From NCBI GenBank assembly GCA_043817235.1, contig JBDRHA010000006.1, forward strand, positions 10,041 through 74,040: DNA of 64,000 nt. Direction: 5' to 3'. Of this stretch, positions 1 to 63,229 are shown piece after piece. The notes under the pieces are model-generated. The model searched no databases, was not told the origin of the DNA, and saw only the letters and a program-made list of their open reading frames with translations. The first letter of the stretch is position 1, and the number at the start of each line of letters is the position of its first letter. A program made the position numbers and the translations under genes. The stretch comes from Candidatus Shapirobacteria bacterium (GTDB lineage: Bacteria; Patescibacteriota; Microgenomatia; UBA12405; BS750m-G30).

Positions 1-3
1 GCG

Positions 4-429
4 ATGATTGCCATAGGAGCGCTGGTTCTTTTTTTGCTTTTGCTTTTTGCCAATCAGGTTGTGCCGCGGGTGCTTTTGTATTTAACCCAGGCCACAAATT
101 CGCCGGGCCAGTATTCATTAGCTAATTCTTATGTTTTTGGCTCACCCTTAGTAGCCGCGGCTAATGGCGAGGATAAAATTAGAGTAACGGCTTTTTTGCT
201 TGACGATAAGGGTCGGGGAGTGGCTGGCTCGCAGATTGACTTAAGGGTAGCGCCAGCAAGCCCGCCTACTGGCGAGGCAAGCCCCCAGATTGAAGCAGTT
301 ACACCCGTGACAGACGAATTTGGCCGGGCAGTTTTTGAGATATTTTCCTCTAGCAAGGGCCAGTTTGTGGTATCAGCTCAAGTCGGCGGGTTGGATTTTC
401 CTCAAACGACCACGCTGACTTTTAGGTAA
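4..429 (+). CDS. C-terminal fragment of a secreted protein with a bacterial Ig-like (Big_1/invasin-like) domain; 5' end lies outside the window
   Basis: ORF open from the window edge. The pattern GEDKIRVTAFLLDDKGRGVAGSQIDLRV...TDEFGRAVFEIFSS...VSAQVGG resembles Big_1 beta-sandwich repeats. Assigned from memory of that family, not from a search. Confidence 0.35.
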   Translation: MIAIGALVLFLLLLFANQVVPRVLLYLTQATNSPGQYSLANSYVFGSPLVAAANGEDKIRVTAFLLDDKGRGVAGSQIDLRVAPASPPTGEASPQIEAVTPVTDEFGRAVFEIFSSSKGQFVVSAQVGGLDFPQTTTLTFR

Positions 430-39669: not shown

Positions 39670-40320
39670 ATGCTAGTTTTAGGCTTGGGCAATCCGGAAA
39701 AAGAATATCAAGATAATCGCCATAATACGGGCAAGCAGTTTTTAGACTTTTTAGACCAAAATAACGAATTAAATTGGCAAAAAAGAAAAGACTTGCTTTG
39801 TTTTTTGGCCAAGAAAGATGATTTATATTTGGCCAAATCTCTAACTTATATGAATGATTCGGGTCAAGCTGCTCAGGCTTTAGTAAAAAAATTAAAAGTA
39901 AAATTAAATAATTTTTATTTAGCTCATGATGAGCTGGATTTAAAATTAGGGGAGTATAAAATTAGCTTTGGCAAAAGTTCGGCTCTTCATAAAGGAGTTT
40001 TATCAGTAGAGCGGGAGCTAAAAAGTAAAGATTTCTGGCGCGTTAGGATTGGGGTAGATAATCGCGATTCAGAAAACCGGATTGCGGGGGAAAGATATGT
40101 TTTGCAGGATTTTCGATCAGAGGAAGAAAAAAAGCTAAAAAAAGTATTTGAGGAAATCATTGTGTCATTGCGGGGGTATTGTCATCCTGAGCGAAGTCGA
40201 AGGATCTTTCCGAAGATTCCTCGATCCCGCAGCTGCGGGACTCAAGATGACTATTTAAACTGTCATTCCGAGCGCAGCCCCGCTACTGCGGGGCGTAGCC
40301 GAGGGATCTTTGAGAATTAA
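39670..40320 (+). CDS. pth: peptidyl-tRNA hydrolase with about 45-aa C-terminal extension encoded by MITE repeats
   Basis: MLVLGLGNPEKEYQDNRHNTGKQFLD is the Pth N-terminal signature with catalytic His. Residues after about 170 (GYCHPERSRRIFPKIPRSRSCGTQDDYLNCHSERSPATAGRSRGIFEN) are the translation of the repeat units at 40168-40317. Confidence 0.9.
   Translation: MLVLGLGNPEKEYQDNRHNTGKQFLDFLDQNNELNWQKRKDLLCFLAKKDDLYLAKSLTYMNDSGQAAQALVKKLKVKLNNFYLAHDELDLKLGEYKISFGKSSALHKGVLSVERELKSKDFWRVRIGVDNRDSENRIAGERYVLQDFRSEEEKKLKKVFEEIIVSLRGYCHPERSRRIFPKIPRSRSCGTQDDYLNCHSERSPATAGRSRGIFEN
40168..40317. repeat. MITE-like repeats forming the 3' end of pth
   Basis: gtcatcctgagcgaagtcgaaggatcttt, cccgcagctgcgggactcaagatgac and tgtcattccgagcgcagccccgctactgcggggcgtagccgagggatctttg. 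Confidence 0.8.
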
Positions 40321-40353: not shown

Positions 40354-40644
40354 ATGCAAAAACAGTTCTTTGTTTATATCTTAAGCAATTTCAAAAGAAA
40401 CGTTCTTTGCATTGGGGTTACCAGTAATTTAAGGAAAAGGGTTTGGGAACACAGGCAAGATTTAGTTCAAGGATTTACCAAAAAATATCAAGTTCATGAC
40501 CTGCTCTATTACGAAGTGTTTACTGATTCTATGCTGGCGATTGCCAGAGAAAAACAGCTAAAAAAATGGAACAGAAGAAAGAAAAATGCCTTAATTGCGA
40601 CGACCAATCCTAAACTTAAAGATCTTTATTCAATAATTTCTTAG
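40354..40644 (+). CDS. GIY-YIG nuclease superfamily protein (UPF0213-like small standalone GIY-YIG)
   Basis: FFVYILSNFKRNVLCIGVTSNLRKRVWEH contains the GIY/YIG motifs and the conserved Arg and Glu. 96 aa. Confidence 0.8.
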   Translation: MQKQFFVYILSNFKRNVLCIGVTSNLRKRVWEHRQDLVQGFTKKYQVHDLLYYEVFTDSMLAIAREKQLKKWNRRKKNALIATTNPKLKDLYSIIS

Positions 40645-40790
40645 ATTGACAAAAGATCTTTCGACTTCGCTCGGGATGACAGGAAACAATGTCATTCCGA
40701 GCATAGTCGAGGAATCTTTGGCGATTAAGCGAAGTATTTTTCTGATTTACGAAAGATCCTTCGGCTACGCTCAGGATGACTTATGGATCA
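40641..40790. repeat. MITE-like repeat cluster
   Basis: ctttcgacttcgctcgggatgaca, tgtcattccgagcatagtcgaggaatcttt and ccttcggctacgctcaggatgac. Confidence 0.8.
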
Positions 40791-45347: not shown

Positions 45348-45600
45348 GAAATTCCCAGAGTCATTCCGAGCGAAGTCCCGAGTACTCGGGACGAAGTCGA
45401 GGAATCTTTAGGAGTAAAAAGATCCTTCGGCTGCGCCCCGTGAATCGCGGGGCTGCGCTCAGGATGACAGGAAACAATGTCATTGCGAGCCCCGCAGCTG
45501 CGGGGGAAGTAATCCCAGGCGGAATATGCAATCCCGTTGGATAGATTGCTTCGTTAGTCACTAGCGTTTCTTCCTCGCAATGACAAAGGAGGTTGAGATT
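45348..45600. repeat. MITE-like repeat cluster including a full 113-bp element with perfect 12-bp TIRs (45476-45590)
   Basis: tgtcattgcgagccccgcagctgcggggg ... ttcctcgcaatgaca; also gtcattccgagcgaagtcccgagtactcgggacgaagtcgaggaatcttt. Confidence 0.85.
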
Positions 45601-47878: not shown

Positions 47879-47892
47879 TAGTAACGTGCACA

Positions 47893-47925
47893 AAAAAAGC
47901 CTCGAATCCGAGGCTGCTTTAAGCT
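47893..47925 (-). terminator. Rho-independent terminator/attenuator hairpin in the rplJ leader (minus strand reads GCCTCGGATTCGAGGC followed by TTTTTTT)
   Basis: Perfect 6-bp stem GCCTCG/CGAGGC with a 4-nt loop and a 7-T run on the minus strand. Lies between the inferred rplJ promoter and the rplJ start. Confidence 0.55.
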
Positions 47926-48014
47926 TTAAGTTTTTGGCTTTAAGCTAATTACCGCCTCGGTAAGATTTTTAAGTCCCGCAGCTGCGGGAGACTTACTGTC
48001 TTGGGCTAGACTTA

Positions 48015-48043
48015 TATTACCAGATTATCCTTTCTTGTCAAGC
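48015..48043 (-). promoter_or_regulatory. candidate sigma-70 promoter for rplJL: TTGACA, 16-nt spacer, TAATAT on the minus strand
   Basis: Reverse complement of 48038-48043 is TTGACA; reverse complement of 48015-48020 is TAATAT. Confidence 0.45.
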
Positions 48044-60903: not shown

Positions 60904-60977
60904 GGGCCCGTGGCTCAGTTGGCTAGAGCGCCTCGATGGCATCGAGGAGGCCGCCGGTTCAAGTCCGGCCGGGTCCA
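60904..60977 (+). tRNA. tRNA-Ala (anticodon GGC) with G3:U70 identity pair
   Basis: GGGCCCG-TG-GCTC-AGTTGGCTA-GAGC-G-CCTCG-ATGGCAT-CGAGG-AGGCC-GCCGG-TTCAAGT-CCGGC-CGGGTCC-A. Confidence 0.8.
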
Positions 60978-62081
60978 CTAATAATATTTTTTTGCCCAAG
61001 TTTGAACTTCTCTAAATTTATTTTCCTCTATGCTTTTTCTAATCCAGGCCATTAAGCGCATGTAAAAAGTTAGATTATGAATAGTTAATAAACGAGAGGC
61101 GAGCGGCTCTTTGACTCGCAGTAAGTGATGCAAATAAGAGCGGGTATAGGTTTGGCAGGTCAAACAGGGGCAATTTTTATCCAGGGAAGCTTGATCTAAT
61201 CTGTATTGACTCTTTTTTAGATTTAGTTTGCCAGAAAAAGTATAAATAGTGCCATGGCGGGCGTTGCGAGTGGGAATTACGCAGTCAAATAAATCCCAGC
61301 CCATGCTGACGGCTTGAACAATTTGTTTTGGCGGCCCGCCGCCCATTAAATAGCGCAAGCGATTGTTAGGAATAAGTGAAGCAGTGTAAGCTAGAATCTC
61401 GTTATTTTCCGGCGGGCCGCCAAACCCATATCCCGGAAAACAAGAAATTGCTTCCAGCTCTTGAAAATTAATTTTCCGCAGTTTTTTGTTATTTGCTCCC
61501 TGAATAATAGACAGCAGCATTTTATTTTTGCTATTTTTTGATTTTTGAAAAGCTTCTAAGCTTTCTTTAGCCCATTTAGTTGTTAGCTTTACTGACAATT
61601 TGTTGTCTTTTTTGCTGCCTTTGGGAGCAATGGGGTAATCTAGACACATTAAAATATCTGCGCCCAAATTAAGCTGGATTTTAATAGATTCGGCTGGCGT
61701 AAAAAAGTGTTTGGCTCCGGTCAGATGGTCGCGAAATTCCACGCCCATATTTCCGACTCGGCCCATCTTTTTTTGGTAAACCAAAGAGAAAACCTGCCAG
61801 CCGCCGCTGTCGGTAAGCAATGGCCTTGGCCAACCCATAAACTTTTTTAAGCCGCCGGCTTTTTTAATAACTTCAAATCCTGGCCGTAGCCAGAGGTGGT
61901 AGCTATTGCCTAAAATCATTTGCAAGCAGATTTCTTTTAAATCTAAAGCGGATAAGTGCTTAACCGCGCCGTAAGTGGCATCAGGAATAAAGCAGGGAGT
62001 AAAAACTTTTCCCGAAGGGGTATTAATAACCCCAGTTCTGGCTTGGGTTTTGCTGTCGCTTTTCAGAACAGAAAATTTCAT
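60978..62081 (-). CDS. tgt: queuine tRNA-ribosyltransferase
   Basis: MKFSVLKSDSKTQARTGVINTPSGKVFTPCFIPDATYGAVKHL; Zn site CPCLTCQTYTRSYLHHL. The stop abuts the tRNA-Ala 3' end. Confidence 0.95.
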   Translation of the reverse strand: MKFSVLKSDSKTQARTGVINTPSGKVFTPCFIPDATYGAVKHLSALDLKEICLQMILGNSYHLWLRPGFEVIKKAGGLKKFMGWPRPLLTDSGGWQVFSLVYQKKMGRVGNMGVEFRDHLTGAKHFFTPAESIKIQLNLGADILMCLDYPIAPKGSKKDNKLSVKLTTKWAKESLEAFQKSKNSKNKMLLSIIQGANNKKLRKINFQELEAISCFPGYGFGGPPENNEILAYTASLIPNNRLRYLMGGGPPKQIVQAVSMGWDLFDCVIPTRNARHGTIYTFSGKLNLKKSQYRLDQASLDKNCPCLTCQTYTRSYLHHLLRVKEPLASRLLTIHNLTFYMRLMAWIRKSIEENKFREVQTWAKKYY

Positions 62082-62102
62082 GCTCCTATTTTAGCAATAC
62101 TT

Positions 62103-62290
62103 GCCCAACTAGTCATTCCGAGCGAGTCAAGATAGAAAGATCCTTCGGCTATGCTCAGGATGACTATTTAATCTGTCATTCCGAGCGAAGCCCCGCGATT
62201 CGCGGGGCGCAGTCGAGGAATCTTCGGAAAAATCCTTCGATCCCGCCGGTGCGGGGCTCGCAATGACAATAGGTGCGGTATTATTGAGTT
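62103..62290. repeat. MITE-like repeat cluster
   Basis: gtcattccgagcgagtcaagatagaaagatccttcggctatgctcaggatgac, tgtcattccgagcgaagccccgcgattcgcggggcgcagtcgaggaatctt and gatcccgccggtgcggggctcgcaatgaca. Confidence 0.8.
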
Positions 62291-62325
62291 TAAGCGGGGG
62301 AGTAGGATAAAATATAGTAGTCTTT

Positions 62326-62396
62326 TAGGCCCGTGGTGAAATGGCTATCATCAACGTCTCCAACCCCGCAGCTGCGGGGCGAGTCCTGGAAGGGCC
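62326..62396 (+). pseudogene. disrupted copy of tRNA-Trp: the first 38 nt are identical to the intact gene, then a MITE-core palindrome CCCCGCAGCTGCGGGG replaces the middle
   Basis: aggcccgtggtgaaatggctatcatcaacgtctccaa is identical to 62665-62701. It is followed by ccccgcagctgcggggcgagtcctggaagggcc, which keeps only T-loop/acceptor-like remnants. Confidence 0.55.
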
Positions 62397-62408
62397 TTTT
62401 AGATTAAA

Positions 62409-62666
62409 ATGTTTTACGTTTATGTCTTGTTGAGTATAAAAGACAAGAATATTTATACTGGGCTTACCTCTAATTTGCTGGCTAGACTAACCGAACATAA
62501 AGAAGGTTTAGTGAGGTCAACCAGAAGCAGAAGACCGGTAAAATTGATATACTATGAGGCTTATTTATCTAAGGTAGACGCTTTACGCAGAGAAAAATAT
62601 TTAAAATTGGGCGGCAAAGCCAAGACGACTTTAAAAAAACAAATACAAGAATCTTTATTATTTTAG
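62409..62666 (+). CDS. GIY-YIG nuclease superfamily protein (second copy; 85 aa)
   Basis: MFYVYVLLSIKDKNIYTGLTSNLLARLTEHKEG...KLIYYEAYLSKVDALRREKYLK. The TAG stop overlaps the 5' end of tRNA-Trp. Confidence 0.8.
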   Translation: MFYVYVLLSIKDKNIYTGLTSNLLARLTEHKEGLVRSTRSRRPVKLIYYEAYLSKVDALRREKYLKLGGKAKTTLKKQIQESLLF

Positions 62667-62736
62667 GCCCGTGGTGAAATGGCTATCATCAACGTCTCCA
62701 AAACGTTGGTTTCAGGTTCGAGTCCTGACGGGCCTG
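62665..62736 (+). tRNA. tRNA-Trp (anticodon CCA)
   Basis: AGGCCCG-TG-GTGA-AATGGCTA-TCAT-C-AACGT-CTCCAAA-ACGTT-GGTT-TCAGG-TTCGAGT-CCTGA-CGGGCCT-G. Good acceptor, anticodon and T arms. Confidence 0.75.
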
Positions 62737-62764
62737 CCGCGATTTTGAATGCTATAATTATTCT

Positions 62765-63229
62765 ATGGATGTAAAGATTAAGAAGGCTCGGACAAAAGAT
62801 TGGAAAGTGATTCAAAAACTCAATAATCAAGTTTATCTTAATGATAAAAAGAACGATGACGACCTTGATTTAACCCAGCCTTTTACCGAAAAAGGAATAA
62901 AATATTACAAAGATTTGGCTGAGGGCAAATATGGACATTGTTTGATTGCTTTTTTAGATAATAAGCCGGTTGGCTATATCGCTTTGGCCAAGAAGAGTTT
63001 CAGTTATCGGAAAAGCAAGTACGTAGAGGTTGAAAACATGGGAGTTGATCCTGAGTATCGTTCTAAAGGAATAGGGAAGAAATTGATGGATGCAGGAAGC
63101 AAGTGGGCCAAAAGCACGGGGGCAGCCAAAATGTGGGTGGTTGCTTACTGGGGGAACAAGGAGGCAATTAAGTTCTATAAAAAGAATGGTTTTTATGAGT
63201 CGGGTTTAGAGTTGGATAAAAAGCTATAG
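62765..63229 (+). CDS. GNAT-family N-acetyltransferase
   Basis: VENMGVDPEYRSKGIGKKLMDAGSKWAKSTGAAKMWV carries the acetyl-CoA-binding motif A (Q/RxxGxG/A). Confidence 0.8.
   Translation: MDVKIKKARTKDWKVIQKLNNQVYLNDKKNDDDLDLTQPFTEKGIKYYKDLAEGKYGHCLIAFLDNKPVGYIALAKKSFSYRKSKYVEVENMGVDPEYRSKGIGKKLMDAGSKWAKSTGAAKMWVVAYWGNKEAIKFYKKNGFYESGLELDKKL

Follow-up and report, generated by a model that had tools for sequence, protein, structure and literature searches.

Introduction

Mobile endonuclease open reading frames (mORFs) have been described in fungal mitochondria, in atp6 of Allomyces macrogynus and in atp6, atp9, cox2 and nad3 of Glomus, where they are inserted together with a replacement C-terminal part of the host gene and the native part is left unexpressed (PMC3630166). 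Their endonucleases are of the LAGLIDADG type or, in atp9, of the GIY-YIG type; 'gene hybrids' are the result, and in Allomyces, biochemical work is reported to have shown that the endonuclease drives mobility (PMC3630166). SegB of phage T4 is a GIY-YIG homing endonuclease encoded in a tRNA gene cluster and is described as able to drive local segmental amplification (PMC2330249, PMC13096335). A survey of rRNA genes in bacteria of the Candidate Phyla Radiation (CPR) reported that every GIY-YIG protein was encoded in an insertion belonging to neither the group I nor the group II introns, and doubted that these home (PMC11270868).

Here we describe a 64-kb stretch of DNA (the window) from a Candidatus Shapirobacteria genome, in which a GIY-YIG gene of 85 codons lies between a dead and an intact copy of the gene for tRNA-Trp. 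Attention had been drawn to the locus by an inspection of the letters alone (the sequence-only reading). From the anatomy of this locus and of its relatives there are strong indications that the gene acts as a mobile and selfish unit with ties to tRNA genes. In open-access papers and on bioRxiv, full-text searches found no account of tRNA-linked small GIY-YIG genes in CPR bacteria or of tRNA fragments capped by palindromes there, and an earlier description elsewhere is possible; apparently, a large set of tiny selfish nuclease genes in the tRNA genes of these ultra-small bacteria has remained undescribed.

Results

The GIY-YIG gene of the window is flanked by a dead and an intact tRNA-Trp

The exact 41-mer TTTTAGGCCCGTGGTGAAATGGCTATCATCAACGTCTCCAA occurs twice in the window, at 62323-62363 and 62661-62701, and the repeat grows to 46 nt with two mismatches (62318-62363 and 62656-62701); the chance expectation for such repeats in 64 kb is about 1.6e-15. 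The downstream copy continues into a complete tRNA-Trp(CCA), called by ARAGORN (62665-62738) and by Rfam (62665-62736, 54.3 bits). The upstream copy is interrupted after ...CTCCAA, where the GC-rich palindrome CCCCGCAGCTGCGGGG stands in for the 17 nt AACGTTGGTTTCAGGTT and is followed by CGAGTCCTGGAAGGGCCT, which corresponds to the T-loop and 3' acceptor strand with about three changes relative to the intact tRNA-Trp. Positions 1-37 are identical in the two copies and only the 3' remnant differs. No tRNA was called in the upstream copy (62327-62397) by ARAGORN, or by Rfam even at E<=1, and its predicted fold consists of an acceptor stem, a D arm and a palindrome hairpin. The spacing between the repeats is 338 nt, and the sole open reading frame (ORF) inside is the intact GIY-YIG gene (62409-62666). 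Its last codons and stop are built from the tRNA leader and tRNA nucleotides 1-2, with the TAG at 62664-62666 and the tRNA starting at 62665. The repeat, the intact tRNA, the interrupted copy with its remnants, the position of the gene and the overlap of its stop codon with the tRNA had all been described in the sequence-only reading and were all recovered here, the coordinates of the repeat being shifted by 1-2 nt. The features of the locus, including repeats that resemble MITEs (miniature inverted-repeat transposable elements), are as follows.

62318-62363, plus strand: direct repeat, upstream copy, made up of the last leader bases and tRNA-Trp positions 1-37
62327-62397, plus strand: pseudo-tRNA-Trp, in which positions 1-37 are followed by the palindrome and then by diverged sequence that starts at position 56 and reaches the 3' acceptor strand
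62364-62379, plus strand: GC palindrome CCCCGCAGCTGCGGGG, in place of tRNA positions 38-55
62409-62666, plus strand: GIY-YIG nuclease gene, 85 amino acids, catalytic domain only, by PF01541 profile match
62656-62701, plus strand: direct repeat, downstream copy, made up of the ORF 3' end (which is the tRNA leader) and tRNA positions 1-37
62665-62738, plus strand: intact tRNA-Trp(CCA), called by ARAGORN and Rfam
62284-62313, plus strand: promoter-like site TTGAGT-18-TAAAAT, from a consensus scan only, 13 nt upstream of the dead tRNA copy
62112-62270, plus strand: two GTCATTCCGAGCG-type MITE-like repeat units, with GC palindromes at hairpin tips (62191-62207 and 62241-62256)
60978-62081, minus strand: tgt gene, separating tRNA-Ala(GGC) from tRNA-Trp in the window
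60904-60978, plus strand: tRNA-Ala(GGC), called by ARAGORN and Rfam, evidently the ancestral upstream neighbour of tRNA-Trp

The promoter-like site is likely the original promoter of tRNA-Trp, and dead copy, nuclease gene and tRNA may by now be transcribed from it jointly; at another locus, L138, the dead copy is preceded by a comparable TAAAAT. Since the gene in the Trp lineage lies between promoter and tRNA, it is probably expressed by read-through. A role for the dead copy as a working non-canonical tRNA was considered and rejected, because no tool calls it and its anticodon stem is without a 3' strand. An Rfam scan of 62050-62800 gave no family besides tRNA except a sub-threshold match to mascRNA-menRNA (E=0.16, 20.8 bits versus a gathering cutoff of 42.5 bits), which overlaps the tRNA itself. 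In the 60904-62081 interval, the end of tgt overlaps the tRNA-Ala 3' end by 1 nt.

The gene encodes a bare nuclease domain of the Slx1/UPF0213 type

The 85-residue protein matches the GIY-YIG profile PF01541 over residues 1-68 (E=2.5e-15, 56.9 bits versus a cutoff of 22.6). A Candidatus Shapirobacteria genome has an identical protein among its annotations, and identity drops to 67% in the next relatives; the exact protein was not found in the contig index. GIY-YIG nucleases carry motif tyrosines about 11 residues apart and an arginine about 10 residues after the second tyrosine, followed by a histidine and a glutamate. Alignment of 22 homologues revealed 29 invariant columns out of 85, among them Y5, Y16/G18, R26, H30 and E50, at the spacing of Y6/Y17/R27/H31 in I-TevI. 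The catalytic centre is thus conserved, as the motif tyrosines, R26, H30 and E50 do not vary.

The predicted structure (predicted local distance difference test score, pLDDT, 87.5) adopts the GIY-YIG fold of a three-stranded sheet with helices, with a single helix after residue 68. Foldseek matched it to 1ZG2, to Slx1 (probability 1.00) and to the catalytic domain of I-TevI (probability 0.8); identity in these fold matches was 29-35% to 1ZG2 and the Slx1 nuclease domain, versus 14-15% to the I-TevI catalytic domain. By sequence, the only solved relatives are two UPF0213 proteins of unknown function, 1ZG2 and 1YWL, and the score against TIGR01453, which represents group I intron endonucleases, was below threshold (16.6 bits versus a cutoff of 56). 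There is no DNA-binding domain, the catalytic domain filling residues 1-68 of the 85. The ORF is an intact member of a group of very small (85-95 amino acids) GIY-YIG nucleases of the Slx1/UPF0213 type. A phage origin was also considered and rejected: 2.9 million viral contigs yielded only four weak or partial matches.

The same layout recurs in related lineages

Four further Shapirobacteria lineages (L001; L002/L003/L004; L005; L031), with nucleases 66-67% identical, share the architecture of the window: a pseudo-tRNA-Trp with palindromes, then the GIY-YIG gene, then a stop codon overlapping the intact tRNA-Trp. The architecture was also found at L133, L134, L138, L139 and L140. In L002, L003 and L004 the order is tRNA-Ala, AGGCCCATAG-[CCCCGCGGCGGCGGGG]-CCAAGGTCTCCAA-[TCCCGCAGCTGCGGGA]-CGAATCCTCA (palindromes in square brackets), GIY-YIG and a TAG over the intact tRNA-Trp, downstream of which stand one or two tandem units of GTCTCCAA-[palindrome]-CGAATCCTCATGGGCCTGC and a trailer. 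L031 has two palindromes, as in L002, and L001 and L005 carry a dead 5' half in which a palindrome replaces the D arm and which ends ...TCTCCAA right at the start codon. In all four lineages, the dead-copy pieces match the tRNA of their own genome with zero or one mismatch. An assembly artefact was ruled out, as the layout recurs in NCBI, JGI, ENA and Logan assemblies.

Several contigs (L001, L004, L005, L063 and L145) end within or just past arrays of tRNA-Trp or tRNA-Cys pseudo-fragments, and the downstream units number two in L002 and one in the otherwise identical L003. Such arrays seem to be points at which assemblies break, and their copy number may vary. Twelve records (L017, L021, L027, L035, L038, L044, L056, L080, L109, L116, L117 and L126) are titled 'uncultured Gammaproteobacteria bacterium', labels that are probably wrong: their tRNA-Trp is of the Shapirobacteria type and the context CPR-like. 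L117 is the same contig as L001.

The nested loci L138 and L140 bear on what moves. In L138 the gene is preceded by a dead 5' part, AGGCCTGTGATGAAACGG...TCTCCAA-[palindrome]-CGAATCCTAGC; the 3' end that belongs to it, CTAGCAGGCCTGCA, follows downstream of an intact tRNA-Trp (AGGGGTGTCGTTCAGTGG...), whose type is quite different. The pentamer CTAGC stands at each of the two junctions, and L140 shows a similar arrangement with a repeat of 34 nt. At both loci the two pseudo-halves belong to one tRNA-Trp type, which differs from the intact tRNA nested between them with the nuclease gene. Because a whole tRNA and the gene are nested within a different, dead tRNA-Trp, the replacement can be an entire tRNA. 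In the window, the dead copy adjoins the promoter and keeps its own 3' remnant, and therefore the cassette plausibly consists of gene plus tRNA, or was rebuilt by gene conversion. The sequence-only reading had proposed a mobile cassette that integrates into a tRNA gene and brings a replacement for the displaced part; a mobile unit tied to tRNA is supported by the comparison with relatives, but a clean split at the anticodon, with a 5' half borne by the cassette, is not.

tRNA-Trp sites are found occupied, decayed and empty

A pattern scan of species-representative genomes recovered 39 CPR tRNA-Trp loci, 31 of them with at least 300 nt of upstream sequence. An intact GIY-YIG gene lay upstream in five of the 31 (L021, L031, L062, L068 and L117), a degenerate gene fragment in one (L107), and in three (L038, L102 and L106) no more than a stump of ~57 nt, the end of the gene, joined to the tRNA leader. 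L062 has a stump of the ~57-nt type and, nested beside it, a second and different GIY-YIG gene. Nothing was found upstream in about 20 of the 31 loci. The sequence-only reading had expected a single intact tRNA-Trp in relatives that lack the gene, and such empty sites were found: tRNA-Ala(GGC) stands directly before tRNA-Trp, at a distance of 6-70 nt, in nine loci (L027, L129, L052, L056, L058, L073, L086, L087 and L119, the last with just 119 nt of upstream sequence). This direct neighbourhood is evidently the ancestral state. L099 retains the tgt neighbour (62% amino acid identity to that of the window) and its site is empty. Such a mix of intact, stump, replaced and empty sites is what a selfish gene passing through gain, decay and loss would be expected to leave.

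The 'empty' spacers of L119, L056, L052 and L087 hold a small hairpin insert between repeats of TCCAC, which is the tRNA-Ala 3' end; insertions of this kind at tRNA ends therefore arise without a nuclease gene.

Homologues lie beside tRNA and other structured-RNA genes

Metagenomic homologues were examined as the best 80 of at least 565 matches, so that the proportions of clades among them are not a census. A tRNA lies within 250 nt of 46 of the 80, versus 5.9 expected from the tRNA density of the outer flanks (P=3e-31). In all 46 the gene is on the same strand as the adjoining tRNA, and at least 16 anticodon types are represented. Two geometries were seen. In one, the gene ends at or inside the tRNA 5' end (Trp, Cys, Val, Thr, Tyr, Ala, Pro, Ser-GGA and Met), with the stop codon over tRNA nucleotides 1-2 in at least eight Trp loci and one Cys locus; in the other, the gene starts 0-230 nt past the tRNA (Glu, Lys, Asn, Ser, Arg, Gln, Leu and Ile). 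A neighbour-joining tree of the proteins sorts by tRNA identity into a Trp clade, an Asn clade and a Glu/Lys clade. A search of other GIY-YIG copies for duplication of the flanking tRNA, as the sequence-only reading had suggested, revealed a partial copy of the same tRNA beyond the gene in at least 12 loci (Trp, L133-L136 and L139; Tyr, L167 and L169; Cys, L204; Ser, L211 and L159; Asn, L195 and L199; z >=6 versus shuffles).

A third clade is without tRNA and is found within the loop formed by a long terminal inverted repeat, CCCCCACACC...GGTGTGGGGG, of 10-20 bp. Its insertions are in RNase P RNA genes (L156 and L178), in 23S rRNA close to the sarcin-ricin region (L182) and in intervals separating protein genes; about 12 more loci belong to it (L161, L166, L176, L177, L183, L184, L187, L191, L192, L198, L203 and L208). 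The inverted-repeat motif CCCCCACACC was not found in the window. Taken across these sites, the GIY-YIG family in CPR bacteria behaves, as far as its distribution indicates, as a selfish gene settling in structured-RNA genes.

In the Glu/Lys clade (L006, L008, L152 and L160), two CCAAGCTnAGCTTGG-like palindromes, of a family other than that in the window, lie between the tRNA 3' end and the GIY-YIG gene. The first pairs with the tRNA's own terminal ..TCACC. Behind each of them the tRNA 3' end is briefly repeated (GCTCACC or GCTCACT), in a manner that resembles a target duplication. The window itself holds a second GIY-YIG gene (40354-40644, plus strand; 96 amino acids, PF01541 E=2.7e-13) of a different subfamily and with no adjoining tRNA. 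On either side (40160-40310 and 40650-40780) it is bordered by repeats of the GTCATTCCGAGCG type that carry palindrome tips, so that both GIY-YIG genes of the window adjoin such repeats.

GC palindromes cap tRNA fragments at loop breakpoints

An exact second copy of the 16-mer CCCCGCAGCTGCGGGG is present at 45490, and 11 more sites match it with 1-3 mismatches, which gives the family 13 sites in the window versus 0.07 expected. Most copies are at the hairpin tips of GTCATTCCGAGCG-type MITE-like repeats, and inside these hairpins some are accompanied by 5-nt direct repeats (e.g. CGCAG...CGCAG). The palindrome in the window's pseudo-tRNA has no flanking direct repeat; 17 nt are replaced instead.

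The ends of pseudo-fragments are concentrated in loops: right ends peak at position 37 (seven fragments) and left ends at position 56 (at least nine fragments), and other ends are in the D loop, at 34|35 and at 57|58. A GC-rich palindrome abuts nearly all of them. The 37|palindrome|56 junction is common to L002, L031, L134, L138, L140 and L145, the last being a tRNA-Cys. We treat the palindromes as a separate repeat family at loop breakpoints, because they also cap fragments that have no GIY-YIG gene between them and occur in the leader of ribosomal protein L10. They could mark nuclease cuts, or insert at breakpoints independently.

In the L10 leader (47884-48023, minus strand), a palindrome copy, TCCCGCAGCTGCGGGA, at 47974-47989 fills the first hairpin loop, which has 18 nt versus 11 in the Rfam model; the RNA element is presumably functional. 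Elsewhere in the window, a peptidyl-tRNA hydrolase ORF (39670-40320, plus strand) encodes 216 amino acids with the Pfam domain extending to residue 168, and its last ~50 codons run through a MITE-like repeat (tail ...VSLRGYCHPERSRRIFPKIPRSRSCG...). The repeat insertion probably displaced the natural 3' end and stop codon of pth.

Discussion

We favour, with a probability of about 0.6, the explanation that the GIY-YIG gene belongs to a homing-endonuclease-like selfish cassette with a bare Slx1/UPF0213-type core, which lives in tRNA transcription units and restores the tRNA that it disrupts. The cassette would combine the nuclease gene with a functional tRNA, whole or in part. Its nuclease would break a tRNA gene, probably where hairpin or cloverleaf DNA forms loops; the break would be repaired by copying from an occupied allele, a working tRNA would be restored by sequence borne on the cassette, and the displaced piece would stay behind as a pseudo-fragment. 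The upstream pseudo-tRNA of the window would then be the former tRNA-Trp beside the promoter, made redundant once the cassette had been copied in, and positions 38-55 may have been replaced through two insertions of GC palindromes at loop breakpoints and loss of the DNA between them. The sequence-only reading had called the gene homing-endonuclease-like. Occupied, decayed and empty sites, and the 46 of 80 homologues beside a co-oriented tRNA, agree with that description, but the DNA-binding domain of canonical GIY-YIG homing endonucleases is absent.

Several points weigh against the selfish-cassette explanation. Support for it is comparative anatomy throughout, from which we infer nuclease activity, its target, transfer, repair-mediated copying, co-transcription and the part played by the palindromes. 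Given the bare catalytic domain, sequence-specific homing of the I-TevI/Seg type has no obvious basis, and the intact tRNA of the window has positions 1-37 and the T loop in common with the dead copy, so that some protection of it from the nuclease would be needed. No pair of occupied and empty sites was found inside one species; the closest pair, L002 and L123, is about 80% identical in nucleotide sequence of the flanks and is rearranged too. The tRNA-Ala-tRNA-Trp segment of L123 is inverted relative to L002, and the pair therefore yields no clean insertion boundary; the tRNA-Ala/tRNA-Trp region appears prone to rearrangement. The match between clade and tRNA could partly reflect vertical inheritance at orthologous sites, not target specificity. 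Finally, the sequence-only reading had held that a partial tRNA duplicate without any GIY-YIG gene would speak against it. Palindrome-capped tRNA fragments without a GIY-YIG gene between them do exist, at L035, L109, L050 and L063, and tRNA-Ala and tRNA-Ile fragments were also found; the nuclease gene is therefore not needed for every fragment, and to that extent the reading is weakened.

Those fragments also speak for an explanation by palindromes or MITEs alone, which would insert at hairpin loops and duplicate or delete tRNA DNA, with the GIY-YIG gene a bystander in permissive spacers. Consistent with this, a palindrome stands at almost every pseudo-fragment end, the family occupies 13 window sites including the tip of the L10 leader hairpin, and short direct repeats lie beside some copies. 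A 16-nt palindrome, however, cannot put a 258-nt gene between tRNA copies, nor does it account for the precise position of the gene, with its stop over the first two tRNA nucleotides at locus after locus. The junction between dead copy and gene has no palindrome in L001 and L005, the gene is co-oriented with the tRNA in every one of the 46 tRNA-linked homologues, and stumps and nested replacement indicate turnover of the gene itself; we consider this explanation unlikely. It is also conceivable that the nuclease mobilises itself and, as non-autonomous partners, the GC palindromes or MITEs in a transposon-like partnership, as do REP-associated tyrosine transposases (RAYT) and repetitive extragenic palindromes (REP), by recognising DNA hairpins instead of homing by homologous repair. 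Both window GIY-YIG genes (62409 and 40354) adjoin GTCATTCCGAGCG repeats with palindrome tips, a whole clade sits in the loop of a long terminal inverted repeat, breakpoints are in loops, the fold is closest to the structure-specific nuclease Slx1, and a 5-nt CTAGC is present at both L138 insertion junctions. Yet the lengths of the duplicated targets vary (5, 34 and 41-46 nt), unlike a fixed target-site duplication, while the palindromes are far more numerous than the genes and their families are unrelated in sequence, which leaves the partnership rather improbable.

No mobility at all would be needed if tRNA-Trp had been duplicated in tandem and one copy had then decayed: the GIY-YIG gene would be a host gene, vertically inherited and co-transcribed, encoding, for example, a repair or tRNA-related nuclease. 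The architecture is kept across lineages down to 66% protein identity, strict co-orientation suits co-transcription, and UPF0213 proteins (PDB 1ZG2 and 1YWL) are single-copy host genes in many bacteria. This account is difficult to reconcile, however, with the patchy occurrence of the gene among Shapirobacteria species, with stumps and clean tRNA-Ala-tRNA-Trp empty sites, with different GIY-YIG lineages in the same spacer (L021 and L062), with family members inside rRNA and RNase P RNA genes, with at least 16 tRNA types in two geometries, or with dead and intact tRNAs of different types in L138 and L140, and we give it only a small chance. tRNA genes are classical integration sites, and the break in the dead copy, at 37|38, falls within its anticodon loop, as might be the case for the remnant of an integrase-type island or for a degenerate group I intron with its homing endonuclease. 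Group I introns are known from tRNA genes of Patescibacteria (PMC13011429). Both candidates were rejected and are scarcely credible: the 338 nt between the repeats hold the 85-amino-acid ORF and no integrase or other recombinase, Rfam at E<=1 gave only tRNA and no intron or other structured RNA, the intact tRNA is uninterrupted, and the repeated part is the tRNA 5' half, not the 3' end.

The selfish-cassette explanation could be widened to a class of mobile elements in which a GIY-YIG core of about 85 amino acids recognises DNA structure (hairpin or cloverleaf loops) and not a long sequence. Such elements would invade tRNA, RNase P RNA and rRNA genes and bring a replacement tRNA for host survival; GC palindromes would be their non-autonomous partners or footprints, and repeated invasions would build up stacks of palindrome-capped tRNA fragments. 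We offer this extension tentatively and regard it as doubtful, though not negligible.

If the selfish-cassette explanation is true, CPR/Patescibacteria genomes, which are among the smallest known and usually have one gene per tRNA, hold abundant unrecognised selfish DNA that repeatedly breaks and rebuilds essential tRNA genes. Such DNA would account for the frequent breaking of contigs at tRNA loci, several contigs here ending in fragment arrays, as well as for spurious short ORF calls and odd partial tRNAs in CPR metagenome-assembled genomes. It would also provide a route for horizontal replacement of tRNA genes, and the 'endonuclease plus replacement gene part' strategy of fungal mitochondria would extend to bacterial RNA genes. 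The question is raised of how an 85-amino-acid GIY-YIG core without a DNA-binding domain finds tRNA genes. Should recognition of DNA structure at 37|38 and 55|56 be true, no targeting nuclease of its kind would be smaller, and the protein would be easy to test in vitro.

Compared with known systems, the window protein is closest in sequence and fold to UPF0213/COG2827 proteins (Bacillus halodurans BH0048, 1ZG2; Enterococcus faecalis EF2693, 1YWL) and to the Slx1 domain. UPF0213 proteins are equally small and single-domain, but the solved bacterial ones have no assigned function or reported link to mobile DNA. Slx1 has an extra zinc-finger domain and needs a partner, Slx4. The T4 Seg proteins and I-TevI are 200-250 amino acids long and have a C-terminal DNA-binding domain. 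With these the family shares the GIY-YIG motif and a gene position between or beside tRNA genes and, on the explanation favoured here, selfish inheritance via double-strand break repair; sporadic spread with gain, decay and loss, as at the 31 tRNA-Trp loci, is likewise a feature of I-TevI, I-BmoI and SegA-G. The window protein differs from Seg and I-TevI in having no DNA-binding domain, in a fold nearer Slx1/UPF0213, and in that its family is rare in viral contigs (four loci). The rRNA insertions surveyed in CPR bacteria (PMC11270868) involve the same host group and protein superfamily, and the inverted-repeat clade described here includes a 23S rRNA insertion (L182); that survey, however, concerns rRNA genes only and leaves tRNA unmentioned, with no tRNA linkage, partial duplications or palindrome caps.

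On this analysis, the closest mechanistic parallel is with the mobile endonuclease ORFs of fungal mitochondria. In both, a free-standing endonuclease gene is combined with a replacement of the disrupted piece and a displaced remnant, as seen here in the window and at Tyr, Cys, Ser and Asn loci. At L138 and L140 the remnant and the incoming piece are also mismatched, as in the fungal elements; in the window positions 1-37 of the two copies are identical and only the 3' remnant differs. The fungal elements occupy mitochondrial protein genes, whereas those described here occupy bacterial tRNA, RNase P RNA and rRNA genes; the replacement here may be the 5' part, the 3' part or the whole of a tRNA, the nuclease is only 85-95 amino acids long, and the remnants are capped by GC palindromes at tRNA loops.

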